Shown one piece after another: positions 5,679 through 47,105 of a stretch of DNA of 64,000 nt; positions within the stretch are counted from its first letter, which is position 1; each line of letters opens with the position of its first letter. Source of the DNA: Escherichia coli (GTDB lineage Bacteria > Pseudomonadota > Gammaproteobacteria > Enterobacterales > Enterobacteriaceae); the NCBI RefSeq assembly GCF_013122565.1, contig NZ_CP053258.1. One strand, written 5' to 3'. The notes beneath the pieces are model-generated. The model saw only the letters and a list, made by a program, of their open reading frames with translations. It did not search any database and was not told the DNA's origin. The position numbers and the translations under genes were made by a program.

Positions 5679-6124
5679 ATCAGTCGCTCACCCTTGCCTT
5701 TTTGATTGCCGCCGGAATTGGTCTGGTAGTCCAGAACACGCTGATGGTGCGCATCACCCAGACCTCCTCTACCATTCTCATCGCCATGTTGCTGAACTCA
5801 CTGGTGGGGATTGTGCTCTTTGTTTCTATTTTATGGTTTAAACAAGGTATGGCGGGGTTTGGCGAACTGGTGTCCAGCGTGCGCTGGTGGACACTTATAC
5901 CTGGCTTGCTGGGATCGTTTTTTGTCTTCGCCAGTATCAGCGGATATCAGAATGTGGGAGCGGCGACAACTATTGCAGTACTGGTCGCCAGCCAGCTGAT
6001 TGGCGGTCTGGTGCTGGATATCTTCCGCAGTCATGGCGTACCACTACGGGCGTTGTTCGGCCCAATTTGTGGCGCAATTTTACTTGTGGTTGGCGCCTGG
6101 CTGGTGGCCAGACGCTCATTTTAA
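5675..6124 (+). CDS. ydcZ: Inner membrane protein YdcZ (DMT-like, DUF606)
   Basis: 149-aa strongly hydrophobic ORF; its start overlaps the mnaT stop by 4 nt (ATGA), suggesting translational coupling. Confidence 0.85.
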   Translation: MNQSLTLAFLIAAGIGLVVQNTLMVRITQTSSTILIAMLLNSLVGIVLFVSILWFKQGMAGFGELVSSVRWWTLIPGLLGSFFVFASISGYQNVGAATTIAVLVASQLIGGLVLDIFRSHGVPLRALFGPICGAILLVVGAWLVARRSF

Positions 6125-6358
6125 TCACAGGATGGTGCCGCCTTTGGTTAACTGTTCGTGGCGCGCTTCCATATCTTCTTTATGCTTGCGACCGTGATGG
6201 GCGATCGCTGTGCGCAGACGTTGCTGCTGGGTGTAGCGATCTTCCCGACTTAACTCCGCGTCATCGCTCAGGGCGATTAATAATTCGTTCATATGGGCAA
6301 TGACGCTCTCTTCAATCGCGGCATCCACGCGCGCGATGACTTCATCCAGATGCGACAT
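6125..6358 (-). CDS. ydcY: Small uncharacterised protein YdcY
   Basis: 77-aa ORF MSHLDEVIARVDAAIEESVIAHMNELLIALSDDAELSREDRYTQQQRLRTAIAHH...; size and position match ydcY. Confidence 0.8.
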   Translation of the reverse strand: MSHLDEVIARVDAAIEESVIAHMNELLIALSDDAELSREDRYTQQQRLRTAIAHHGRKHKEDMEARHEQLTKGGTIL

Positions 6359-6443
6359 ACTTTCTCCTTAGCCACTTGTGAAATTTATCGATTCATCCAA
6401 ATGATATAAGTCTGCGTGGTGCCGTCAAGCCAGTGAGTAAGAT

Positions 6444-6617
6444 TTAAAACAGTGAAAACAACAGCGCCACCGGGAAACTCATCGGCCATGTTGCCCCCAC
6501 CAGAAAGGCGCTTAAGAAACGGATGCGTTTCTTATCGTGAGAAAGAAACCAGGTGATAAGAAATGCGATTGCTGCCATAACCGCATAAAAAACAAGCATG
6601 TGTTGATAGAGAGACAT
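6444..6617 (-). CDS. ortT: Orphan membrane toxin OrtT (YdcX), 57 aa, TisB/GhoT-like
   Basis: ORF 6444..6692 trimmed to MSLYQHMLVFYAVMAAIAFLITWFLSHDKKRIRFLSAFLVGATWPMSFPVALLFSLF; two predicted transmembrane helices. Confidence 0.75.
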   Translation of the reverse strand: MSLYQHMLVFYAVMAAIAFLITWFLSHDKKRIRFLSAFLVGATWPMSFPVALLFSLF

Positions 6618-6811
6618 GTACGGGCGTCCAGCCAGATGAATAAAACGCGCGCAAATATGCGTCATTTTTTGACATGCATCAAGTTTTTTCACCAGTTTGA
6701 GAAAAAATCATCAAACAGCAACTTGCCCTTATCCATCTTCAGAATGAGTATTATTGCGGATTTTCTTAACCCGTACTATACACATAGGGGCAATGATAAA
6801 AGGTGGCAAAA

Positions 6812-6907
6812 ATGAATGTTTCCAGTAGAACTGTAGTACTGATAAATGTCTTTGCTGCTGTTGGTTTGTTTACTCTTATCTCTATGAGATTTGGCTGGTT
6901 TATTTGA
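6812..6907 (+). CDS. yncL: Small membrane protein YncL (31 aa)
   Basis: Not in the ORF track (below the size cut-off). aggtgg Shine-Dalgarno 7 nt upstream of ATG; hand translation MNVSSRTVVLINVFAAVGLFTLISMRFGWFI then stop, with one hydrophobic helix. Confidence 0.7.
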   Translation: MNVSSRTVVLINVFAAVGLFTLISMRFGWFI

Positions 6908-6929
6908 TGTAGTGATTTTGCACGCAGCA

Positions 6930-6964
6930 CGTACTGTCAGAGAAAACAACTCTCTGACAGTACG
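6930..6964. terminator. Perfect 13-bp-stem hairpin between convergent yncL and patD, probable bidirectional terminator
   Basis: cgtactgtcagag (6930..6942), 9-nt loop, ctctgacagtacg (6952..6964); sits between the yncL stop (6907) and the patD stop (7004). Confidence 0.6.
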
Positions 6965-7003
6965 TAAGATCATCTCATACTCTTACGATCTGCAATATTA
7001 TCC

Positions 7004-8428
7004 TTAATGTTTAACCATGACGTGGCGGACGACGGTGTAATCCTCCAGCCCATAAAGTGACATATCCTTGCCGTAACCAGAAAGTTTCTGCCCACCGTGC
7101 GGCATTTCACTTACCAGCATGAAATGGGTATTGACCCAGGTACAACCATATTGCAGCCGTGCGCTGACGCGATGCGCCCTGCCCACATCTTTCGTCCATA
7201 CCGAAGATGCAAGTCCGTACTGGCTGTCATTCGCCCAGTTTACCACCTGTTCTTCGTTGTCGAAGAGCGTAACACTCACTACTGGACCAAATACCTCTTT
7301 TTGCACGATGGCATCGTCCTGTAATGCGCCAGCCAGCAGCGTCGGCGCATAGTAATAGCCATTACCCTTGCGCTTTTCACCGCCAGTGATCACTTTGATG
7401 TGCCCTGTCGCTTTCGCCTCTTCTACCGCTTTGCTAACGCGTTCGAGATGCGCCAGCGAGCTTAAAGGTCCAAGCTCCGTAGACTCGTCATCCGGCGCAC
7501 CAGATTTTAACGTTGCCACTGCAGCACCGAGTTTTTCCACCAGCGTATCGTAAATGCCTTTTTGCGCGTAGATCCGACAAGCCGCAGTACAATCCTGTCC
7601 GGCATTGTAATAGCCAAATGTACGTACACCTTCGACCACTGCTTCAATATCCGCATCATCAAAAACAATCACTGGCGCTTTGCCACCAAGTTCCATATGA
7701 GTTCGCTTAATGGACGGCGCGGTATGGCTGATGATGTGCTCGCCGGTGGCGATAGAGCCCGTCAGCGACGCCATCCGCACTTTGGGATGACCGGTCAGCG
7801 GATCGCCCACCGTTTTGCCTCTGCCAAACAGTACGTTAATCACGCCTGCCGGGAAGATATCTTTCGCCAGCTCTGCCAACTTCAACGCGGTCAGCGGGGT
7901 AATTTCTGATGGTTTAAGCACTACGCAGTTCCCTGCCGCCAGCGCCGGAGCCAATTTCCACGCTGCCATCATCAGCGGATAATTCCACGGTGCGATCGAA
8001 GCCACGACCCCCAATGGATCGCGACGGATCATCGAAGTATGACCTTCAAGATATTCACCTGCCGCCAGACCATTCAGACAGCGCGCCGCACCAGCGAAAA
8101 AGCGAAAAACATCGACAATCGCCGGGATTTCATCATTGAATGCACTATGCAGCGGTTTGCCACAATTACGGGATTCCAGTTCGGCAAAAACCTGACCATT
8201 TTCTTCGATAACATCCGCCAGTTTCAGCAGGCATTCCGCACGCGCTTTCGGCGTGGTTTGCCCCCATTCGGCAAATGCTGCATCTGCCGCGCGCACAGCA
8301 GCATCCACCTGCTCTACGGATGCCTCGGCAATCTCCAGTAAAACGTCCCCCGTTGCCGGATTATAAACAGGCTGTTTTTCCCCTTCGCCGCTAACCAGTT
8401 CTCCGTTAATCAGTAACTTATGTTGCAT
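7004..8428 (-). CDS. patD: Gamma-aminobutyraldehyde dehydrogenase (NAD-dependent aldehyde dehydrogenase)
   Basis: 474-aa ORF with aldehyde dehydrogenase motifs (ELGGKAP, catalytic-Cys region [11 protein letters not shown]); last gene of the ydcSTUV-patD cluster. Confidence 0.9.
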
Positions 8429-8449
8429 AGCATATTCCTGTATCAGTGG

Positions 8450-9244
8450 TTATTGACCATTGTCGCCTTCGCGGGTTAGCCACCAGGCCCCCAGGATCGG
8501 CAAGGTTGTTACCAACATAACCAGCAGTGCCACCACGTTGGTTACCGGTACATCACGCGGTCGCCCAAGCTGATTGAGCAACCACAACGGTAACGTTCGT
8601 TCATGACCTGCCGTAAAGGTCGTAACGATGATTTCATCGAACGACAAGGCAAACGCCAGCATTCCTCCTGCCAGTAGCGCCGAACTGAGATTCGGCAACA
8701 CTACGTAGCGGAAGGTTTGCCAGCCATTGGCCCCAAGATCCATTGACGCCTCAACCAGATTCCACGAGGTGCGGCGAAAACGGGCGATGACATTGTTAAA
8801 CACCACCACTACGCAAAAAGTCGCATGACCGACCACGATGGTGAAAAATCCCGGCTCCAGATTGATGGTTTTAAAAGCGGTTAATAGCGCCAGACCAGTG
8901 ACAATGCCCGGCAGCGCAATGGGCAGCAGCAGTAACAGCGAAATGGCGTTTTTGCCGAAAAAGTCTCGTCGCCACAGCGCGGCAGCTGCCAGCGTCCCTA
9001 ACACCAGCGCGATTAATGTCGCCAGCGCTGCCACTTTAAGTGACAGTGTCACTGCATCAAGAATATCACTACGCTGTGCTGCCACGCTAAACCAGCGCAG
9101 CGTCAGGCCTTGCGGTGGAAAACTAAACGCCGCATCTTCAGTGTTAAACGCATAGGCGGCGATAATCAGGATGGGAAAATGTAGGAAAACCACGCCGCCC
9201 CAGGCCGCCAGTTTGAGGAAAAACGGTGCGCGTTCAGAGTGCAT
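8450..9244 (-). CDS. ydcV: ABC transporter permease YdcV (polyamine-type, PotC-like)
   Basis: 264-aa polytopic membrane ORF with the ABC permease EAA-like loop ([20 protein letters not shown]). Confidence 0.85.
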
Positions 9245-10175
9245 CGAACGCTCCCAGACGTTTCACGAACGCCAGGTACAGTGCGATGAGAATAATCGGC
9301 ACCAGGGTGAATGCCGCCGCCATCGGCATATTGCCAATCGCCCCCTGCTGGGAATAAACCATATTGCCGATAAAATATCCTGGAGGACCAACCAGCTGCG
9401 GGACGATAAAATCGCCCAGTGTGAGTGAGAAGGTAAAGATAGAGCCAGCGGCAATACCCGGGATTGCCAGCGGCAGCACCACATAGCGAAAGGTTTGTCG
9501 TGGACGTGCGCCGAGATCAGCTGACGCCTGCAACAATGACGGAGGCAAACGCTCAAGCGCCGCCTGCACGGGCAGGATCATGAACGGCAGCCAGATATAG
9601 AGAAACACCAGAAAGCGCCCCAGCCCGGAAGTTGACAGAGTATTGCCGCCCACCGCAGGTAATGTAAGGAACGCAGTCAGCAGTGGTTCCAGCCCAAGAT
9701 GTTGTAAAAACCACTGAGCCACGCCATCTTTTGCCAGCAATAACGTCCAGGCATAGGCTTTCACAATGTAGCTCGCCCACATCGGCAACATTACCGCAAT
9801 ATAAAAAAACGCTTTCATTTTCCCGCTGGTATAGCGCGCCATATACCACGCCATTGGAAAAGCCAGAATACCGCTGGCGATAGTGACTGCCACAGCCATA
9901 GTCAGCGTGCGGAGAATGATGTCGTAATTCGCCGGATTAAACAGCGCACGGATATTCTCCAGCGTCAGCTCCGGCGTTACCGACATGGTGAAATCGTCAA
10001 AAGTATAAAATCCCTGCCATAACAGTGTCAGCAGCGAGCCGAAATAGACAATGCCAAACCACATTAGCGGGCCAAGCAGCAGTAAAAACAGCCCCAGCCC
10101 CGGATTACGCCAGAAGAAACCGGACACCTTACCCAGACCTGGACGTGAAGGTGATTGCAATACGTTCATCGCCAT
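9234..10175 (-). CDS. ydcU: ABC transporter permease YdcU (PotB-like)
   Basis: 313-aa membrane ORF with EAA loop ([20 protein letters not shown]); overlaps the ydcV start by 11 nt. Confidence 0.85.
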
Positions 10176-11189
10176 TCACCTCTCCTCAACCAGCGGCACC
10201 ATCACATCACGCGACCAGGAAACCATCACCTGTTGTCCGGGCGTGAGCGTGGAAGGCAGTTCTTCGCCTGTCATATTGGCCTGACTCACCAGCAGTTTTT
10301 CACCGCCGTTCAGTCTCAGTTCAAAACGGGTCGCCGCGCCCTGATACTGCACCGCCTGGATCGTGCCATTAGCCTGCACTTCGCCGGGGATGTTGAAGCG
10401 GATATGTTCCGGTCGCAGGGCGAAGCTTCCCGTCATGCCACAAAGTTTGTCTGCCATCAGTGCATCAAAAACATTCGATGTCCCGACGAACCCGGCAACA
10501 AACGGCGTGCGCGGGCGCATATAGAGATCGCGCGGGGAATCGACCTGTTCAATGCGTCCATTATTGAAAACCGCCACACGATCGGACATCGATAACGCTT
10601 CGCCCTGATCGTGGGTAACGAAGATAAAAGTGATACCGAGAGACTGTTGCAGCTTTTTCAGTTCCAGCTGCATCTGCTCACGCAATTTGAGATCCAGTGC
10701 GCCGAGCGGTTCATCCAACAGCAATACGCGCGGTTCATTCACCAATGCTCTGGCGATAGCAACCCGCTGGCGCTGACCACCAGAAAGTTGTGACGGTTTG
10801 CGTTGCTGAACAAAACCCAGCGCCACTTTCTCCAGCGCCTCTTGCGCCATTGCGTGCCGCTGCTTTTTATTCACGCCTTTGACCATCAGCCCGTAGCCTA
10901 CGTTGTCAAGAATCGACATATGCGGAAAAAGCGCGTAGTCCTGAAAGACGGTATTCACGTCCCGCTCCCACGGTGGCAGATTGCTGGCGGGTTTACCAAA
11001 GATAGAGATAGCCCCGCTGGAAAGCTGTTCGAAGCCAGCAATCAGGCGTAGGCAGGTGGTTTTGCCGGAGCCGGACGGCCCCAGCATAGAGAAGAACTCA
11101 CCATCTTTTATCGCAATACTGACGCCATCTACTGCGCGCACGTCACCGTACAACCGCGAGACGTTGTCAAACTCCACTGCGTACGTCAT
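10176..11189 (-). CDS. ydcT: ABC transporter ATP-binding protein YdcT (PotA-like)
   Basis: 337-aa ORF with Walker A GPSGSGKTT, signature LSGGQRQR and Walker B LLLDEP. Confidence 0.9.
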   Translation of the reverse strand: MTYAVEFDNVSRLYGDVRAVDGVSIAIKDGEFFSMLGPSGSGKTTCLRLIAGFEQLSSGAISIFGKPASNLPPWERDVNTVFQDYALFPHMSILDNVGYGLMVKGVNKKQRHAMAQEALEKVALGFVQQRKPSQLSGGQRQRVAIARALVNEPRVLLLDEPLGALDLKLREQMQLELKKLQQSLGITFIFVTHDQGEALSMSDRVAVFNNGRIEQVDSPRDLYMRPRTPFVAGFVGTSNVFDALMADKLCGMTGSFALRPEHIRFNIPGEVQANGTIQAVQYQGAATRFELRLNGGEKLLVSQANMTGEELPSTLTPGQQVMVSWSRDVMVPLVEER

Positions 11190-11206
11190 AAAGCACCCCA
11201 GCGAAG

Positions 11207-12352
11207 TTAGCGACCGCCCATAATGGCAATGTAATCCTGCGTCCAGCGACTGTAGGGAACAAACTTGCCCCCTTCTGCTATAGGCGTTTTCCAGAAGGCG
11301 ATTTTATCGAAATAGTTAAAACCGTTTGTTTCACACCCTTTCTCGCCTAATAACGGACTGGCTTTACATCCTTCCGGCACTACCGGTAACGAGCCAAACC
11401 AGGCCGCCACATCGCCCTGCACTTTTGGCGTTAATGACCAGTTCATCCATTTGTAGGCGCAAACCGGATGTTTCGCTTCGCTATGCAGCATGGTGGTATC
11501 AGCCCAACCGGTAACGCCCTCCTTCGGGAAAACGGTAGCAACAGGCTGGCCTTCGGCTTTCAGGGCGTTGGCCTGATAGGGCCATGCACTGGAAGCAACC
11601 ACACCCTCGTTTTTGAAATCGCTCATTTGCACGGTAGTGTCATGCCAGTAGCGATGGATCAAACTATGTTGATCGCGCAGCACTTTCAGCACCGACTGGT
11701 ACTGTTCTTCGGTGAGTTGATACGGATCGCTGATGCCCAACTGCGGCTGAGTGGCTTTAACGAACAACGCAGCGTCCGCAATGTAGATAGGGCCATCATA
11801 AGCCTGGACGCGGCCTTTATTGCTCTTGCCGTCCGGCAGATTCTGCTCAACAAAAACCACTTGCCAGCTATCCGGCGGCGTCGGGAAGGTTTTAGTGTTG
11901 TACATCAGCAGGTTCGGCCCCCATTGGTAAGGTGTGCCGTAAACTTTGCCGCCAACGTTAAACCAGTCGCCTTTAACCACGCGCGGATCGAGCGTTTTCC
12001 AGTTGGGAATCAAGGCGGTATTAATCGGCTGCACGCGTTTGCCCATAATCAAACGCAGCGAGGCATCGCCAGATGCCGTAACCAGATCGTAACCCCCTTT
12101 GGCCATCAGACTGACCATTTCATCGGAAGTCGCCGCAGTTTTCACATTCACCGCGCAACCTGTTTCTTTTTCAAATTGCGTCACCCAGTCGTATTGTTTA
12201 TCGGTTTGTCCGCGTTCGATGTATCCCGGCCAGGCGATAATATCCAGTCGCCCTTCCGGTTTATCTAAATTGGTAGGCGGTTCGGCGGCGTGAGCGGTCA
12301 TTATTGTCATGCTGAGCGCACACAGGCTGCTGCGGGCAAATGTCTTGCTCAT
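11207..12352 (-). CDS. ydcS: Periplasmic substrate-binding protein YdcS (polyamine-binding family)
   Basis: 381-aa ORF with an N-terminal signal peptide (MSKTFARSSLCALSMTIMTAHAA); first gene of the transporter cluster. Confidence 0.85.
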   Translation of the reverse strand: MSKTFARSSLCALSMTIMTAHAAEPPTNLDKPEGRLDIIAWPGYIERGQTDKQYDWVTQFEKETGCAVNVKTAATSDEMVSLMAKGGYDLVTASGDASLRLIMGKRVQPINTALIPNWKTLDPRVVKGDWFNVGGKVYGTPYQWGPNLLMYNTKTFPTPPDSWQVVFVEQNLPDGKSNKGRVQAYDGPIYIADAALFVKATQPQLGISDPYQLTEEQYQSVLKVLRDQHSLIHRYWHDTTVQMSDFKNEGVVASSAWPYQANALKAEGQPVATVFPKEGVTGWADTTMLHSEAKHPVCAYKWMNWSLTPKVQGDVAAWFGSLPVVPEGCKASPLLGEKGCETNGFNYFDKIAFWKTPIAEGGKFVPYSRWTQDYIAIMGGR

Positions 12353-12596
12353 AAGGTCTTACTCCTGTCGTAATTAATTGTTCAGCCGCCGTGCCGTAAA
12401 AATATCTCCTTGTTTAACCATAGACGGCGGCTTGCAGGCACACCTTCGCCCCTGAGAAAATTTAATCAGGTTGTGAGCTACCGCGCATTATGCCGTCTGT
12501 AAGGTTATCTTCTGGAGTATAGTCAAGGAGTTAGGAAATATGACTGCTATTCGAAATTCATATTACCCAATCTAAGAGGAATTAAATTAAACGCTA

Positions 12597-14003
12597 TTAC
12601 AGCCGTTCTTGAATAAGTTTGCCTAATTGTTTTACCGCCTGTTCTTCACGTTCTCCCCACTGCCACGCGGTATTAAAACGAAAAAAACGTGACCAGTTTT
12701 CACCGGTAGAAAACATTTTACCCGGCGCAATACTGATATGATGCGTCAGTGCCGCCAGGCTTAATTCGCCGGCATCTAACGGCTCGGGGAGCTCCAGCCA
12801 GAGAAAATAACCGCTGTCATTATGATGAATTTTCACTTCCGCAGGCAGATAACGCAGCAGTGCCTGCCAGGCACGTTGTTTACGTTCCGCAAGCTGGCGA
12901 CGCAGGCGACGAAGATGGGCGTCGTATCGGCGCGTGGAAAGGTAATCCACCAGCGCAAGCTGCATCGGTGAGCTGGTGGAAAGCGTACTCATCAACTGCA
13001 ATCGTTGAATTTTACGTGCATGTTTTCCGGCGGCGACCCAACCAATACGAAAACCAGGCACCAGACATTTCGAAAACGAAGAGCAATGCAAAACGCCATC
13101 GTGGCGATCCCACGCTTTCGCAGGCAGCGGTTTTTCCCGTCCAAAATAAAGTTCGCTGTAAACGTCATCTTCAATCAGCGTTACGTTGTACTGATTGAGC
13201 AACGCCACCAGTTGTGCTTTTTTTTGTGGCGTTAAGGTAAATCCGAGTGGATTCTGGCTATTAGTCATCAGCCAGCACGCTTTCACCGGATACTCCTGCA
13301 ACGCCAGTTCCAGCGCCTGAAGATCGATCCCTTCTTTAACATCCGTCGCCACCGATAACGCCTTCAGCCGTAGCCGCTCCAGCGCCTGCAACGCGCCGTA
13401 GAAACAAGGATTCTCTACTATCACCCAATCGCCCGGTTCAGTTACCGCTTGCAAACTGAGGTTTAATGCCTCTAACGCCCCGGCAGTAATGACAATTTCA
13501 TCAGGAGAAATGGTGATGCCCTGTAAGGCATAGCGACGGGCAATAGCCTGACGCAGTTCTGCGTTTCCTGGCGGCAAGTTTTCAATCACGCTCATCGCCG
13601 TGGCGGTTTTGCTTACCTGCGCCAGCGAGCGGTTTAGTTGTTGGAGGGGGAAAAGTCGCGGGTCGGGAAAGGCCGAGGCAAACGGAACTACCGACGGATC
13701 GCGACTGGCCTGCAACATATCAAAAATATAGGTGTTGATATCGACTGCTTCATCTCGAGTGACTGGAATGACTGGCGCTTTCGGCATTTTTATTGCCTGT
13801 GGCGCAACGTAATAACCCGACTGCGGTCGCGCGATAATATGTCCCTGACTTTCGAGCAACTGATAGGCATGGCTGACAGTCATAAAGCTCATGCCAGAAA
13901 GCGCCACCTGGTCACGCAACGAAGGCAAACGATCGCCGGATTGCCAGATACCAGACGCAATCTGTTCGCGTAATTGTTCTGCAAGCTGCTGATATTTTTT
14001 CAT
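12597..14003 (-). CDS. ydcR: MocR/GabR-type regulator YdcR (GntR HTH fused to a PLP aminotransferase-like domain)
   Basis: 468-aa ORF; N-terminal wHTH region, long aminotransferase-fold C-terminus containing SFSKCLVPGFRIGW (PLP-lysine region). Confidence 0.85.
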   Translation of the reverse strand: MKKYQQLAEQLREQIASGIWQSGDRLPSLRDQVALSGMSFMTVSHAYQLLESQGHIIARPQSGYYVAPQAIKMPKAPVIPVTRDEAVDINTYIFDMLQASRDPSVVPFASAFPDPRLFPLQQLNRSLAQVSKTATAMSVIENLPPGNAELRQAIARRYALQGITISPDEIVITAGALEALNLSLQAVTEPGDWVIVENPCFYGALQALERLRLKALSVATDVKEGIDLQALELALQEYPVKACWLMTNSQNPLGFTLTPQKKAQLVALLNQYNVTLIEDDVYSELYFGREKPLPAKAWDRHDGVLHCSSFSKCLVPGFRIGWVAAGKHARKIQRLQLMSTLSTSSPMQLALVDYLSTRRYDAHLRRLRRQLAERKQRAWQALLRYLPAEVKIHHNDSGYFLWLELPEPLDAGELSLAALTHHISIAPGKMFSTGENWSRFFRFNTAWQWGEREEQAVKQLGKLIQERL

Positions 14004-14081
14004 TATCGAATCGTAATTATGTGCAGATGATTCGGCAGTCTATATCAGTTGTTAAAAATGACAACTTTTCATTAACTGTTA

Positions 14082-14498
<417 letters not shown>

Positions 14499-14543
14499 AA
14501 TTTCGACTGTCTCTCGCATGTCATTAACCTTTTTAATTGGCGA

Positions 14544-14720
14544 TTAACTCAAACCGAGTTGTTTCTGGATTGCTTTACGCAATGGTTCTTTAATCTCATC
14601 GCAGGGGTGACGCGGCATGACACTGCGCATCCCATGAAACCTGACTTTCAAATGGTTGCTGCCATTCGCTACATCGACGCCCTGAGATTCGAGCCAACGT
14701 CTGAACTCGCTTTGTTTCAC
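14544..14720 (-). CDS. hicA: HicA mRNA-interferase toxin (58 aa, GTG start)
   Basis: Not in the ORF track. Hand translation of the minus strand from GTG: (M)KQSEFRRWLESQGVDVANGSNHLKVRFHGMRSVMPRHPCDEIKEPLRKAIQKQLGLS then stop. Confidence 0.75.
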   Translation of the reverse strand: MKQSEFRRWLESQGVDVANGSNHLKVRFHGMRSVMPRHPCDEIKEPLRKAIQKQLGLS

Positions 14721-14941
14721 ATCGCCTCCCTGCCGCTGAGTATATCAACAAAGTAAACATTAGTGTTTACCTCCGTGTGTAATTTGCTCGAAAATAGCAC
14801 TAAATTGCCGCAACGGCAGAATGCAATGCAAAATCAGGAAGGAAGATTCCAGAATTTCTTTGCGCTAATTTGCAAAACTGAATAATAACCTCAAGAAACG
14901 ATCGGCATCATAGCGGCAAAAGGTAAGAAAAAGGTGGCAGG

Positions 14942-15172
14942 ATGTTTACGAAGGCGTTATCGGTTGTCTTATTAACGTGTGCGCTGTTCTCAGGACAACT
15001 CATGGCAGGGCACAAAGGACATGAATTTGTGTGGGTAAAGAATGTGGATCATCAGCTGCGTCATGAAGCGGACAGCGATGAATTGCGTGCTGTGGCGGAA
15101 GAGTCGGCGGAAGGTTTGCGCGAGCATTTTTACTGGCAAAAATCGCGCAAACCAGAAGCGGGACAACGTTGA
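14942..15172 (+). CDS. yncJ: Small secreted protein YncJ (76 aa)
   Basis: ORF with signal peptide MFTKALSVVLLTCALFSGQLMA; matches YncJ in size and position. Confidence 0.8.
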   Translation: MFTKALSVVLLTCALFSGQLMAGHKGHEFVWVKNVDHQLRHEADSDELRAVAEESAEGLREHFYWQKSRKPEAGQR

Positions 15173-39997: not shown

Positions 39998-40011
39998 CCG
40001 GACACGATCTT

Positions 40012-40038
40012 GATGTGGACTGTAGTTCAGTCCACATC
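40012..40038. terminator. Perfect 11-bp hairpin between convergent azoR and ynbD
   Basis: gatgtggactg, tagtt loop, cagtccacatc. Confidence 0.6.
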
Positions 40039-40047
40039 TCAATCCAC

Positions 40048-43111
<3,064 letters not shown>

Positions 43112-43126
43112 TTTCTCTATTTTCCT

Positions 43127-44023
43127 TCAGTAACAGCAGTAGCGAATAAAATAAAAAAATACCGGAGCGGTGAAAATTAATGAGTCAATCCTGTCAAGGA
43201 GTCCGCCATGTCCTGGTAATAGTTTTCCACTATCTTTAACACCAATATCTCGTTTGATGGCTGACATCACTACATCGCCGCAAAAACCACTAATACCAAT
43301 TAACAAACCCGCTAATATTGCCTGTAATGTATTTAGCGGTGTCAGTAACGGTCCAATGATCATCGACGCTATCATGGTGGTGATTACGCCGCCGACCAGA
43401 CCTTCCAGCGTTTTTCCAGGGCTGACTTTGGGGACCACTTTTCTTCTGCCGCAGGATTTCCCCCATAAATACTGTGCAATATCGTTTGACTCGGTTAATG
43501 CCAAAAGAAATAACACCAGTAAGGCCCCGCCCTGGATATTTATGGATGGCAACATTAATAACCAGGCGGCATGACTCAAGGCGAAAACGGTCATTATCCA
43601 GCCCCAAAAAATGGCGCTCACGGTACGCAGAAAACCGGAGGGGTCACCCACAAAAACTCGCCAGGTGGCTAATATCAGAAACCCAGCCAAAGGTATAAAT
43701 AACAGAAACAGCTCAAAGCAATTAAAACCGATAAGCAAATAGTTAAGAGGAATAACCCAATATAACCACCGCGGAAAATGTACAGATATAAGCGTACAAT
43801 ATTCTTTCAATGCCAGAAAACTTATCAGCGCAAAAAACGTCAACGTCATCCAGCGTGGACCTGAAATCACCAGTGAAAAACAAATGACGATACCCCACCA
43901 GGTACGAATACGTAATGTAACTTCATCCCCTTTTCTCTCCGGTAACCGCCATACCAGAAAACGGTTTATCAGCGTTGCTAAAATTAACAACGCGAAAAGT
44001 GTTGCCAGAGACTTTTCCAGCAT
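43127..44023 (-). CDS. ynbB: YnbB, CDP-diglyceride synthase (CdsA) family membrane protein
   Basis: ORF 43127..44059 trimmed to the MLEKSLATLFALLIL start (298 aa); the C-terminal region resembles the cytidylyltransferase signature. Confidence 0.75.
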   Translation of the reverse strand: MLEKSLATLFALLILATLINRFLVWRLPERKGDEVTLRIRTWWGIVICFSLVISGPRWMTLTFFALISFLALKEYCTLISVHFPRWLYWVIPLNYLLIGFNCFELFLLFIPLAGFLILATWRVFVGDPSGFLRTVSAIFWGWIMTVFALSHAAWLLMLPSINIQGGALLVLFLLALTESNDIAQYLWGKSCGRRKVVPKVSPGKTLEGLVGGVITTMIASMIIGPLLTPLNTLQAILAGLLIGISGFCGDVVMSAIKRDIGVKDSGKLLPGHGGLLDRIDSLIFTAPVFFYFIRYCCY

Positions 44024-44628
44024 TATCTTACAGCGCTCATAAGAAGCACACTCCGACAACGATTAATCGCAGTCCAGATAAGCAGAATTGAAGCAATGCT
44101 CCATAAAAGATTATTCCATTGCATCCACTGTGGATAAATGGCAACGGTCAGACCCCACAGACCAAATAATAACGCGCGATCGCTTTTGCCAAATGGACCG
44201 GCATAACTGCGAACACCGTTAATCGTCTGCGCGAGTAAACCACAATACTCGGTCAATATGGTGCAAAATAACATGAGTATCACGAGTGATGCGTTACTTT
44301 CCGGTAAAAATAAAAATGGTAAATAGAGCGCAATATCGGAAATAACATCGCCAGTCTCATTCAAAATCGCCCCCAGACGTGTTTGCTGGTTGCACTCACG
44401 CGCCAACATGCCATCCAGCGCATTGAGCGCCATACGGATAAAAAGCACGATGGGCAATAGCAAAAAGAGGATGGGTTGTGCCGCCAACATCAACAGCAAT
44501 CCGGTAAGAAGAGAAAGCGCCAGTGCATCAAGAGTGATGTGATTCGCTGTAACGTGGTGCTTATAAAGCCAAAACATCGTCGGCCTTAACAGCGACTGAA
44601 AGAGCGGTTTTATCTGGTAGAGCGTCAT
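44023..44628 (-). CDS. ynbA: YnbA, CDP-alcohol phosphatidyltransferase family membrane protein
   Basis: About 201 aa; contains the CDP-alcohol phosphatidyltransferase motif region (DGMLARECNQQTRLGAILNETGDVISD); its stop overlaps the ynbB start by 1 nt. Confidence 0.75.
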   Translation of the reverse strand: MTLYQIKPLFQSLLRPTMFWLYKHHVTANHITLDALALSLLTGLLLMLAAQPILFLLLPIVLFIRMALNALDGMLARECNQQTRLGAILNETGDVISDIALYLPFLFLPESNASLVILMLFCTILTEYCGLLAQTINGVRSYAGPFGKSDRALLFGLWGLTVAIYPQWMQWNNLLWSIASILLIWTAINRCRSVLLMSAVR

Positions 44629-44798
44629 TATCAATCCTTGATAATTCGGTTTGCGCTATGGTGCATCAATTCCCCTGACGGAGATATCGCAACACGCCGC
44701 TTCATTAAAAATTCAGAATATATCAAGGTATTGGGGACTCACCGTCAGGAATGATTATCCCCAATAAATCAAGTGGTTAAAAATTATTACGCTGTTAT

Positions 44799-47105
44799 TC
44801 AATACAACTCATCAAGTTTTCTCATCGCTTGTTCCCGTATTGCGCGCGTCTTACCGTTAAGCGCCAGCTGCCGAACTAAATCCAGTTCAGGGTTAACAAG
44901 CTCTAACGCCAGCAAAGGATCACGTTTCAGCCTCGCCTTTAATACATCAACTGGAAAACGGGGATTATTCATCGCCACAATCCACCACTCGGGATCAATT
45001 TCTGCCGCCAGTACTGCAGGCGGTGTGTGGCGGTTGTTAAGTGCGCCGAACTTGAAAAATGTGAGATTGCTTTTCGCCAGTGTACTCCACCATATACGAT
45101 CCGGTTGTTTTGCCAGTACATCCAGTTGTGCTAACGCATCGGGGTCTAGTGCATAATAAACACGTAACGCTTCGTTAACCTGCGCACGGGAACTGTTTTC
45201 CTGCCTCAGAAAAAACTTCGCCCAAATATCATTGCGTGGCGTGTTTTGCTGTAATTCCTTGAGAACAACAGCGGGTAAATTATCCCAACTAATTAATGCA
45301 CTCTCTAAAAAGTCCCAGTCGTCCGAACGTATCAGAGAGGTGGCATTTAATAGCATCTGGTCATCAACTTCACCGTAGCTGATAAGCTCAGACAAAATCA
45401 TATCAGCGCTGGTTTCATATGCAGCTGAATCTGCTTTGGGATTATTTTTCCGATGCGATAAAGCACGTTGCCAAATTTTTTGTTTCATTGACGTGCTCAG
45501 ATACTGATTTTTCGCCAGATTACTCCACCCCTCAGGATCGTTGAAACGTGTCAATAACCGTTGTAAAGCAGCGTCAGAGTGAATTACCTGCATATCCCGA
45601 CAGCAAAAGTAGGCAGGGGATTTTTTCTCCATCCTTTTAACAAAATTAAACTGTAAGTTATCTGGCAATGCTAAAAATAACACACGTATTAGATCATCGT
45701 CATTCTCGAATTTTTGGTATAAATATACTGCTATTTTGTCACTCTCTTGTGGCGTCATCCGCAACAATTGACCATGGTGTTTCATCTCTGCCAGCTTTGA
45801 CGCTAAGCTTGTGACAACATCGTTTGATGAATCGTTCGCCAACTGCATTGCCTGATTGTAGGTGAGTTGTCCTCCAGCACCGACCTGACGAATAGAGGAA
45901 TCATCACTGCGGATATAGCCATCAATAATGGATTCGGGCAATAACCACGCATCTTTATAAAGCTCCTGAATGATCATATCCCAATCTCTTTTCGCCAGAG
46001 TCATGACGATATCCAGAGGGAGATTTTCACGTAGCGCAAGATTCAACGGACCGACACCATCAGGTAGATGACTCATTCGCGTCATTATTTCGACAGAGAG
46101 CGGTTCACGGTCGAGCAACCCCAGAACAACAGGCTGGTAACCCAATTGCTGATCGGTCAACTCCAGAATCTCATTGTCAGGCATATATCTCGCCATACTT
46201 TCAATCGTTTGTCCATCATTGCTATTAATAAGTTGTTTGCGTAGGTTAGCTGAAATTCCTTTAAGCCTTGGGAGAGTTCGCATTATGGCAAGATCAAATG
46301 TCGCAATATCTCGTCCTTCAAATGCAGCAACGTTGCCTTCATCCAGCATTTGCAATTCCTGCACTAACTCAGGAGCAGGCTTAGGGCGAAACAGCGCTTC
46401 TTTTTTCATCAGATTACAGACATTCCCTGCCATGCGAATATTGCTTCGCTTAAAAATTTCTTTCAGAGCATCTTCATCATTTATTAGACCCCAATAATAT
46501 GCATCAGGATTTATTATCATCAGCGCTTTTTTGACATTTTCAGTGTCATTTTTGTCACTCGCACGGACCATGAATTCACTATTTGTCGAAGACGCAACAA
46601 CAGGTGCAATTATGTCATTGATAAATATCCCACGCGCATTAATACTCCCCTTAATTGTAGACGGATTATCGTAATATGAGTCGATAAATACCAGTCCACT
46701 TGCATTTATCGAACCGGTAATTAACAGTGGTGAATCCGTAACTATATTCGTTGCCGTCACGTTACCGAGAATAACCCATGGATTAGAAAGAGAGAAAGTG
46801 GAAATATTACCTTTGACTGTCAAATTGCCAAGAACAATCAATTTTTGATTACTCTCTATATTACCGTCTACCACTAAATCGCCACGATGCACTTTCCAGT
46901 CCGATGCAGATAAACCGAAGGGGACAAGATTCACGCTACTGTTGATAGCTTGTTCAACTTGTTGTTTATCTTCAGCGGTAGCCGCAGAAAAAAATGGTTC
47001 AATATCAACTGCATTTGCAACACATCGAAGGTCCGCCTGTACTGGAAGACTCAGCATAAACAGGGGAAGTAAACCTATCCAGCCGCAAATCCTGGCCTTA
47101 AACAT
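44799..47105 (-). CDS. ydbD: Large uncharacterised secreted protein YdbD (DUF2773)
   Basis: About 768 aa with a signal peptide (ICGWIGLLPLFMLSLPVQA). The start is chosen among MHMFKAR; the first ATG (47111) is also possible. Confidence 0.75.
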   Translation of the reverse strand: MFKARICGWIGLLPLFMLSLPVQADLRCVANAVDIEPFFSAATAEDKQQVEQAINSSVNLVPFGLSASDWKVHRGDLVVDGNIESNQKLIVLGNLTVKGNISTFSLSNPWVILGNVTATNIVTDSPLLITGSINASGLVFIDSYYDNPSTIKGSINARGIFINDIIAPVVASSTNSEFMVRASDKNDTENVKKALMIINPDAYYWGLINDEDALKEIFKRSNIRMAGNVCNLMKKEALFRPKPAPELVQELQMLDEGNVAAFEGRDIATFDLAIMRTLPRLKGISANLRKQLINSNDGQTIESMARYMPDNEILELTDQQLGYQPVVLGLLDREPLSVEIMTRMSHLPDGVGPLNLALRENLPLDIVMTLAKRDWDMIIQELYKDAWLLPESIIDGYIRSDDSSIRQVGAGGQLTYNQAMQLANDSSNDVVTSLASKLAEMKHHGQLLRMTPQESDKIAVYLYQKFENDDDLIRVLFLALPDNLQFNFVKRMEKKSPAYFCCRDMQVIHSDAALQRLLTRFNDPEGWSNLAKNQYLSTSMKQKIWQRALSHRKNNPKADSAAYETSADMILSELISYGEVDDQMLLNATSLIRSDDWDFLESALISWDNLPAVVLKELQQNTPRNDIWAKFFLRQENSSRAQVNEALRVYYALDPDALAQLDVLAKQPDRIWWSTLAKSNLTFFKFGALNNRHTPPAVLAAEIDPEWWIVAMNNPRFPVDVLKARLKRDPLLALELVNPELDLVRQLALNGKTRAIREQAMRKLDELY

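Follow-up and report, generated by a model that had tools for sequence, protein, structure and literature searches.

The ydcSTUV-patD operon lies on the minus strand of the stretch of Escherichia coli DNA analysed here (64,000 nucleotides of contig NZ_CP053258.1, below called the window). It encodes an ATP-binding cassette (ABC) importer together with the dehydrogenase PatD. That the locus is the E. coli ydcSTUV-patD operon, consisting of a type I ABC importer of the PotD/PotF lineage and patD, is close to certain, and the operon is not new, as it has already been annotated and named in the literature. The initial annotation described the transported substrate as not established, and this is accurate: the literature speaks of a 'putative putrescine transporter', for which the cited source is a transporter database. 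Our results tentatively suggest that YdcSTUV does not import a classical diamine but a small compound carrying a single cationic nitrogen, most likely an omega-aminoaldehyde or a cyclic imine. The indications come from the residues predicted to line the pocket of the binding protein YdcS, and from the genes that accompany the operon in other bacteria.

Gene layout and protein families

The list of open reading frames (ORFs) contains six intact genes on the minus strand, in the order ydcR-ydcS-ydcT-ydcU-ydcV-patD. Their positions and those of the associated features are as follows:

12597..14003, minus strand: ydcR, 468 amino acids (aa), MocR-type regulator (Pfam GntR and Aminotran_1_2; b1439 in K-12, with 2 aa differences)
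12353..12596, minus strand: ydcR-ydcS intergenic region, 244 nucleotides (nt), with a sigma-S-type −10 element, a conserved block and a Shine-Dalgarno sequence
11207..12352, minus strand: ydcS, 381 aa, periplasmic substrate-binding protein (NCBIfam YdcS equivalog)
10176..11189, minus strand: ydcT, 337 aa, PotA-like ABC ATPase (Pfam ABC_tran and C-terminal TOBE_2)
9234..10175, minus strand: ydcU, 313 aa, PotB/PotH-like permease (Pfam BPD_transp_1)
8450..9244, minus strand: ydcV, 264 aa, PotC/PotI-like permease (Pfam BPD_transp_1)
7004..8428, minus strand: patD (ydcW), 474 aa, cytoplasmic NAD-dependent gamma-aminobutyraldehyde / 5-aminopentanal dehydrogenase (TIGR03374)
6929..6965, minus strand: hairpin of 16 bp in the convergent patD/yncL spacer, candidate transcript end or stabiliser

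The gene set, the gene order and the 11-nt overlap between ydcU and ydcV (9234-9244) that were given in the initial annotation are borne out by the ORF list and by the RefSeq annotation, which has the same overlap. Its range of 8450-12352 for the whole operon needs correction, because this covers ydcSTUV only and patD lies outside it at 7004-8428; the strand was missing as well. Downstream of the 244-nt spacer between ydcR and ydcS, with its conserved sigma-S-type −10 element, the genes on the common strand follow each other with spacers of 17 nt (ydcS-ydcT), 0 nt (ydcT-ydcU), −11 nt (ydcU-ydcV) and 21 nt (ydcV-patD). The proposed direct packing of a PotD/PotF-family importer with patD holds, and these spacers leave no room for terminators. 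In the literature, the cluster counts as a single operon and goes by the name 'ydcSTUV-patD operon' (PMC11052181).

Compared to E. coli K-12, where the operon is b1440-b1444 and ydcR is b1439, the genes, their order, their lengths and their spacings are the same, and the differences are only allelic. Nucleotide identity to K-12 is 98.03%, with 7000 nt free of insertions and deletions, and there are 1-10 aa changes per protein (2 in YdcR, 3 in YdcS, 7 in PatD and 10 in YdcT). In the best-matching E. coli genome, RefSeq likewise annotates these genes in this order, and a megablast search found the 8-kb region, with identical annotation, in 5415 of the 5426 complete E. coli genomes in RefSeq. The best nucleotide identities among these genomes were 98.4% and 98.0% (window positions 6500-14500 and 40000-46000, respectively). 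Because the best match is only 98.4%, the lineage of this DNA seems not to be represented in the set of 5426 genomes, although its gene content and gene order are still those of E. coli.

The transport proteins have the architecture of the PotD/PotF importers, with a type II binding protein (SBP_bac_1/8), a TOBE-containing ATPase and two BPD_transp_1 permeases encoded in one gene cluster. YdcS has an N-terminal Sec signal ending in AHA/AEPP, and passes the NCBIfam equivalog NF041888 with 813.4 bits over residues 3-381 (cut-off 725). Its scores against the polyamine-binding equivalogs stay under the cut-offs, with 62.9 bits for PotF (cut-off 636) and 45.7 bits for PotD (cut-off 582), and it is only about 23-25% identical to these two proteins. 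The top NCBIfam match of YdcT is PotA (358 bits, under the cut-off of 482), while PotB/PotH and PotC/PotI are the top neighbours of YdcU and YdcV, all under the equivalog cut-offs. From residue 23 onwards, YdcS corresponds to the crystal structure 6NLP in the Protein Data Bank (PDB), which is 99% identical (3 aa differences) and was deposited as 'bacterial extracellular solute-binding family protein'. The next PDB relatives are SpuE, PotF, SpuD and PotD (E = 1e-19 to 1e-10), and no closer characterised relative with a known ligand was found in the PDB, even at E ≤ 10.

PatD passes the aminobutyraldehyde dehydrogenase equivalog TIGR03374 with 1036.2 bits (cut-off 909.3), and in NCBIfam its family is nearest to the betaine-aldehyde dehydrogenases. 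The protein is an established 4-aminobutanal enzyme, which also acts on 5-aminopentanal (PMC6265302). YdcSTUV shares its importer architecture and the fold family of its binding protein with PotFGHI (putrescine), PotABCD (spermidine) and SpuDEFGH of Pseudomonas aeruginosa. However, the pot and spu transporter operons contain no aldehyde dehydrogenase, whereas the ydcSTUV-patD operon does.

Ligand pocket of YdcS

To map the pocket, YdcS orthologues from E. coli to Pseudomonas were aligned with PotF and PotD of E. coli at the level of sequence, without coordinates, and the residue groups of PotF were taken as defined by Kroger et al. 2021 (PMC8666671). The corresponding residues are:

Aromatic box: PotF W37, YdcS W41 (kept)
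Aromatic box: PotF W244, YdcS W257 (kept)
Aromatic box: PotF F276, YdcS W283 (kept)
Distal: PotF S85, YdcS S94 (kept)
Distal: PotF D278, YdcS D285 (kept)
Distal: PotF S87, YdcS D96 (acid gained)
Distal: PotF E185, YdcS Y190 (acid lost)
Proximal, binding N1: PotF S38, YdcS P42 (lost)
Proximal, binding N1: PotF D39, YdcS G43 (acid lost)
Proximal, binding N1: PotF D247, YdcS Q260 (acid lost)

The aromatic box and the Asp equivalent to D278 are thus common to YdcS and the Pot/Spu binding proteins, and all of the 98 YdcS-family sequences compared have the three box residues W41, W257 and W283. In contrast, the proximal residues that hold the primary amine in PotF (S38, D39 and D247) are replaced in the alignment by P42, G43 and Q260, and the HMMER pairwise alignment likewise places no acid at the position of D247. 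Of the distal acidic pair, E185 and D278, the latter is aligned with an acid of YdcS (D285) and the former with Y190; a new acid, D96, which might take over from E185, occurs at the position of S87. D39, D247, E185 and D278 each show at least 96% conservation among PotF homologues, and PotF with no more than the mild triple change S38T/D39E/D247S binds neither putrescine nor spermidine (PMC8666671). YdcS further differs from the Pot/Spu proteins by an extra loop after its WPGY motif and by a Cys-containing C-terminal insertion.

The residue pattern of YdcS does not reflect decay, because the pocket positions are near-invariant down to 41% identity. W41, G43, Y44, S94, D96, W257, W283 and D285 are invariant in all 98 sequences; this amounts to 8 of the 14 pocket-equivalent positions, against 78 of the 358 positions of mature YdcS overall. 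Many representatives with 30-60% identity share this signature, and the family comprises 363 representative clusters at E < 1e-30. The pocket-equivalent positions are strongly aromatic (W41, Y44, Y190, W257, W283 and W354), with two Asp residues and a neutral proximal end (P42, G43 and Q260), and none of the 14 carries a positive charge. We infer that YdcS keeps one ammonium site and a hydrophobic sleeve, while the second ammonium site would now be neutral. Hence, the designation 'polyamine-type' in the initial annotation stands at the level of family and architecture, but not at the binding site, where all three proximal N1 residues of PotF are replaced.

In ABC importers, the binding protein is usually the fastest-evolving component. 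YdcS was more conserved than the ATPase YdcT in all 73 non-Escherichia Enterobacteriaceae loci compared (L005-L081). Mean aa identities in these loci were 90.7% for YdcS, 89.9% for YdcV, 88.6% for YdcU, 85.3% for PatD, 83.1% for YdcT and 82.9% for YdcR. Identity of YdcS to its Pseudomonas orthologues is still 75-81%.

Gene context, substrate and alternative roles

Gene context was compared across 80 species-representative Enterobacteriaceae loci and 7 loci of Serratia, Rahnella, Lonsdalea and Pseudomonas. The complete order ydcR-ydcS-T-U-V-patD was found in 77 of the 80 Enterobacteriaceae loci; the three that lack patD (L062, L063 and L065) are all cut by contig ends, and L062 retains ydcR-ydcSTUV. 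A PatD orthologue with 70-77% identity to PatD also follows ydcV in all 7 loci from outside the Enterobacteriaceae, in which YdcS is 75-85% identical to the E. coli protein. In 6 of these 7 loci, a LysR regulator and a second PatD paralogue (~60% identity, passing the ABALDH subfamily model) are located upstream:

Serratia marcescens: LysR, second PatD paralogue and ydcSTUV-patD, followed by SpdH and then a cytochrome c
Rahnella: LysR, second PatD paralogue and ydcSTUV-patD, with nothing notable after patD
Lonsdalea: LysR, second PatD paralogue and ydcSTUV-patD, with nothing notable after patD
P. parafulva: LysR, second PatD paralogue and ydcSTUV-patD, with nothing notable after patD
P. knackmussii: LysR, second PatD paralogue and ydcSTUV-patD, followed by an amino-acid/choline-type permease
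P. nitroreducens: LysR, second PatD paralogue and ydcSTUV-patD, followed by SpdH
P. putida: only ydcSTUV-patD, with nothing notable after patD

The association with an aldehyde dehydrogenase also occurs in a distant environmental genome, where the order is T-S-U-V and the YdcS relative has 56-58% identity. Directly upstream of this cassette lies a divergent enzyme of the ABALDH subfamily, with 57% identity to PatD and 727 bits (cut-off 615). Two further distant environmental loci were sampled, one of which is cut at a contig end; the other is discussed below. Within the sampled cassettes we found no gamma-glutamyl ligase, oxidase, deacetylase or amidinohydrolase, nor an aminotransferase (~90 loci).

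The gene that follows patD in two of the loci encodes a spermidine dehydrogenase, SpdH. In S. marcescens, it is a 636-aa flavoprotein that matches SpdH of P. aeruginosa (PDB 7D9F) with E = 1e-245, and the 620-aa SpdH in the same slot of P. nitroreducens is 60% identical to the Serratia protein. Both start with M-x-ITRRDFLNG, a motif for twin-arginine (Tat) export, and the cytochrome c next to the Serratia spdH has a Sec signal; given these signals, SpdH of both species would work outside the cytoplasm. From spermidine, SpdH produces 1,3-diaminopropane and 4-aminobutanal/1-pyrroline; from spermine, it produces spermidine and 3-aminopropanal. The production of two aminoaldehydes matches the presence of two dehydrogenases in the cassette. 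A comparable pathway has been described for P. aeruginosa and S. marcescens, where the aminoaldehyde released by SpdH is oxidised to gamma-aminobutyric acid (GABA) or beta-alanine by a KauB/PauC-type aminoaldehyde dehydrogenase. The position of spdH directly after ydcSTUV-patD in S. marcescens and P. nitroreducens resembles this pathway. However, the literature searched names no transporter for it, and the E. coli locus has no spdH.

Two closely related Pseudomonas contexts (L086 15919-17430; L096 14939-16801) differ in the slot after patD, where either SpdH (P. nitroreducens) or an amino-acid/choline-type APC permease (P. knackmussii) is found. The same SnoaL and chemoreceptor genes follow either variant, which indicates that one was exchanged for the other at this site.

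A clade of YdcS-like proteins (P0121; L091, L098, L099) with ~59% identity to E. coli YdcS is abundant in uncultured Actinomycetota, Chloroflexi-type bacteria and related metagenome bins. Here the order is ATPase, solute-binding protein, permease, permease, and the cross-phylum identity is unusually high for a binding protein. From the agt-like gene order we suspected that AgtB of P. aeruginosa, involved in GABA/5-aminovalerate uptake, might be the nearest characterised homologue. This candidate was dropped; when the 59% relative P0121 served as query, all proteins retrieved were of uncultured Actinomycetota or Chloroflexi type, and none was named AgtB.

Import of an aminoaldehyde or cyclic imine could operate as a route through three compartments. 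Polyamines would be cleaved oxidatively outside the cytoplasm into aminoaldehydes, by periplasmic SpdH in Serratia and Pseudomonas, and by amine oxidases of the host, plants or neighbouring cells in the case of E. coli. YdcS would capture the compound in the periplasm (4-aminobutanal/1-pyrroline, 5-aminopentanal/1-piperideine and possibly 3-aminopropanal), and YdcUV and YdcT would pump it into the cytoplasm. PatD would then oxidise the imported compound directly to GABA (or to 5-aminovalerate or beta-alanine), which would be passed on to GabT/GabD. In this way, PatD-type dehydrogenases would detoxify a toxic aldehyde and at the same time provide a nitrogen source. Direct aminoaldehyde import would explain why the transporter is linked to the second enzyme of putrescine catabolism, patD, and not to the first, patA, which in K-12 (b3073) is located far from patD (b1444). 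A transporter could be of use here, since 1-pyrroline has a pKa of 6.8 and much of it would thus be cationic at or below neutral pH, and unable to cross the membrane unaided. Possibly, YdcSTUV is the first dedicated importer of polyamine-derived aminoaldehydes and cyclic imines, a suggestion that is if anything more tentative than the nature of the substrate.

Several points weigh against this interpretation. The two acids D96 and D285 remain in YdcS, and cation-pi contacts with W41/W257 could hold a second ammonium group, such that a diamine might fit; the pocket was compared through an alignment and not with the coordinates of 6NLP. SpdH adjacency occurs in just 2 of the 7 samples from outside the Enterobacteriaceae, and would equally fit uptake of 1,3-diaminopropane. 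Using tblastn, spdH was found neither in the 64-kb window nor in the 80 Enterobacteriaceae loci, and without spdH near the operon the aminoaldehyde in E. coli would need an outside source, such as host diamine oxidase, plant amine oxidases or other microbes. The second of the distant environmental loci mentioned above (L099) has no aldehyde dehydrogenase nearby. Above pH 6.8, 1-pyrroline is a small, neutral and volatile molecule that might reach the cytoplasm unassisted. Furthermore, patA and the operon reportedly share nitrogen and stationary-phase control, and the separate location of patA is therefore no proof of a separate pathway. Finally, the literature searched contains no binding or transport assay of YdcSTUV for any ligand, no link of ydcS to pyrroline or aminobutanal, and nothing relevant on 6NLP.

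According to the annotation in the literature, YdcSTUV would instead import putrescine, and perhaps cadaverine, with PatA, encoded elsewhere, deaminating the diamine and PatD completing its conversion to GABA or 5-aminovalerate. This is in line with the nearest characterised relatives of YdcS (SpuE, PotF, SpuD and PotD), with the best scores of the ATPase and permeases against PotA, PotB and PotC, and with papers that list YdcSTUV among the putrescine importers or as putative putrescine transporter. PatA and PatD also convert putrescine and cadaverine in vitro (PMC6265302). The reported control by Nac fits nitrogen scavenging, and the two acids and four tryptophans in YdcS, including its aromatic box, could hold a diamine. 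However, the citations trace back to a database prediction, and putrescine has been quoted as the substrate of ydcSTUV for 25 years on homology alone. The replacement of the proximal N1 residues by P, G and Q and of E185 by Y goes far beyond the changes that abolish polyamine binding in PotF, the scores of YdcS against PotF and PotD are only a small fraction of the cut-offs, and an aminotransferase was linked to the cassette in none of the loci. Schneider and Reitzer (2012) reportedly found a puuP mutant to be unable to use putrescine as nitrogen source, which is a weak argument against transport of bulk putrescine by YdcSTUV. We consider import of putrescine or cadaverine doubtful, and rank it below import of an aminoaldehyde or cyclic imine. 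An alternative explanation, to which we give no more credence than to putrescine, might be that the substrate is another small amine with one charged nitrogen, and that PatD and its paralogue act later in its catabolism. Candidates are 1,3-diaminopropane, N-acetylputrescine, the agmatine-derived 4-guanidinobutanal, a trimethylammonio- or betaine-type aldehyde, and an omega-amino acid. The strongly aromatic pocket with two Asp and a neutral proximal end would suit such compounds, as would the proximity of PatD to betaine-aldehyde dehydrogenases and the amino-acid/choline-type permease that takes the place of spdH in P. knackmussii; moreover, the YdcS signature marks a large subfamily of 363 clusters without a characterised member. 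Yet the pocket offers no positive residue as a partner for a carboxylate, an argument against GABA or 5-aminovalerate; the sampled loci have no linked deacetylase, amidinohydrolase or aminotransferase, and the evidence favours no single candidate compound. In this analysis, uptake of another amine is indistinguishable from uptake of an aminoaldehyde.

Two published phenotypes assign YdcS quite different functions, and both seem improbable as its main role. In one proposal (Sun, 2016, 2018), double-stranded plasmid DNA crosses the inner membrane by way of YdcS and YdcV when cells on plates undergo RpoS-dependent natural transformation; inactivation of ydcS and ydcV cuts transformation 6.7-fold and 9.5-fold, respectively. 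The ydcT mutant, however, falls by less than half (PMC6135910), which suggests an indirect phenotype. All four proteins are ordinary parts of a small-molecule ABC importer, the pocket-equivalents of YdcS are near-invariant residues of a small-amine site, and no DNA binding is on record; a DNA route would also leave the linkage to aldehyde dehydrogenases across distant bacteria without explanation. We regard it as the least probable of all the roles considered. Nearly as improbable is the proposal that YdcS is chiefly a periplasmic, alpha/beta-hydrolase-type synthase of short-chain poly-3-hydroxybutyrate (cPHB), as put forward by Dai and Reusch (2008) and reflected in the K-12 product name 'binding protein/polyhydroxybutyrate synthase'. 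A supposed kinship with alpha/beta-hydrolases was part of the argument for this role. Polymerase activity was assigned to YdcS, and deletion of ydcS gave ~30% less cPHB in the outer membrane (PMC3709699); the unusual conservation of YdcS for a binding protein might be seen as further support. Yet Pfam returns only solute-binding-protein families for YdcS and no alpha/beta-hydrolase domain, the protein has no G-x-[SC]-x-G lipase-box motif, and 6NLP was deposited as a solute-binding family protein with PotF and SpuE as its next relatives. Nor would a synthase explain the linked permeases, ATPase and dehydrogenases, or how hydroxybutyryl-CoA is supplied in the periplasm.

The substrate question can now be phrased as a specific prediction for an already crystallised protein, namely that YdcS prefers an aminoaldehyde or cyclic imine to a diamine. 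If this is true, the signature WPGY...SxD...WxxQ...WxD characterises a large and widespread subfamily whose present label, 'spermidine/putrescine-binding', is wrong, and genomes and metagenomes would need re-annotation. It would also imply that gut and plant-associated bacteria scavenge reactive compounds released by the amine oxidases of hosts and microbes, and the transformation and cPHB phenotypes of ydcS could be re-read as indirect effects.

Regulation and flanking genes

Alignment of the region upstream of ydcS from 12 genera showed three conserved features, i.e., two blocks and a strong Shine-Dalgarno sequence (AGGAG, 12366..12362). The block TTG(T/A)CTATACTCC contains C-TATACT, which has the shape of a sigma-S −10 element (12522..12516, minus strand), and transcription of the operon probably starts at this conserved sigma-S-type promoter. 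This fits the reported RpoS dependence, as expression of ydcS and ydcU drops strongly without RpoS or cyclic AMP (cAMP). The second block, GGAGATATTTTTACGGCAnGGCnGC (12409..12385, minus strand), lies in the ydcS leader and is almost invariant across the 12 genera. RNAalifold predicted an invariant stem of 4 bp for this block, with no covariation, and no RNA family was matched when positions 6000-15000 were compared to Rfam (E ≤ 0.1); we do not claim an RNA element. The block contains a GGA motif, and so does the Shine-Dalgarno sequence. One paper links the ydcSTUV-patD operon to the CsrA network, and the GGAGATATTTTTACGGCAnGGCnGC block could be a binding site of CsrA or of another protein. A consensus promoter scan performed at chance level (7 found, 7.8 expected). 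The same holds for terminator-like matches inside genes (16, against 11.0 ± 3.7 expected), among which no internal terminator stands out.

In the literature, the operon is listed as Nac-controlled, and up-regulation of ydcSTUV is described for E. coli during colonisation of the mouse gut. The initial annotation had tied its proposal to a response of the operon to nitrogen or polyamine conditions. For nitrogen this is answered in part, by the listed Nac control, to which the dependence on RpoS and cAMP can be added.

The initial annotation was correct that ydcR encodes a MocR-type protein (GntR and Aminotran_1_2 domains) upstream of the operon and in the same orientation on the minus strand. 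With its GntR helix-turn-helix and aminotransferase-like domain, YdcR resembles MocR/GabR regulators that are encoded beside their targets, such as GabR next to gabTD. The hint that YdcR regulates the operon, however, does not hold up well. A published comparative regulon of YdcR, which spans E. coli, Salmonella, Klebsiella, Serratia and many other Proteobacteria, comprises ylaC and genes for a cytochrome bd-type oxidase (cydAB-like), and does not list the adjacent ydcSTUV. Although ydcR adjoins ydcS in 78 of the 80 Enterobacteriaceae loci, the linkage is limited to this family, whereas a MocR regulator of neighbouring genes should be linked to its target wherever the target occurs. The cassettes of Serratia, Rahnella, Lonsdalea and Pseudomonas lack ydcR and have the LysR regulator instead in 6 of 7 cases, and in Serratia and Pseudomonas the YdcR orthologues are encoded away from the cassette. 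Going by the published prediction and the gene context, YdcR is probably a neighbour of the operon and not its regulator, and its adjacency to ydcS in Enterobacteriaceae looks more like synteny than like a regulatory pair.

On the other side of the operon, yncL (6812-6907, plus strand) is convergent with patD, and the hairpin at 6929-6965 lies between them. The hairpin is a perfect stem of 16 bp with a minimum free energy of −34.4 kcal/mol (z = −3.74; 0 of 200 shuffles were as stable), and has no U-tract on either strand. Next to it, window positions 6125-6907 contain a dense run of tiny genes that are annotated in the RefSeq entry of the best match as ydcY, the orphan toxin ortT and yncL.

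Upstream of ydcR, at a distance of 78 nt, lies a hicAB toxin-antitoxin pair (hicB at 14082-14519, with hicA beyond it), which was found at this position only in Escherichia and a few Citrobacter. An unrelated hicAB pair is located just downstream of patD in the P. putida locus (L097, 14613-15196). The presence of hicAB pairs near the cassette in these genomes could be a coincidence or could mark insertion hot spots around it.

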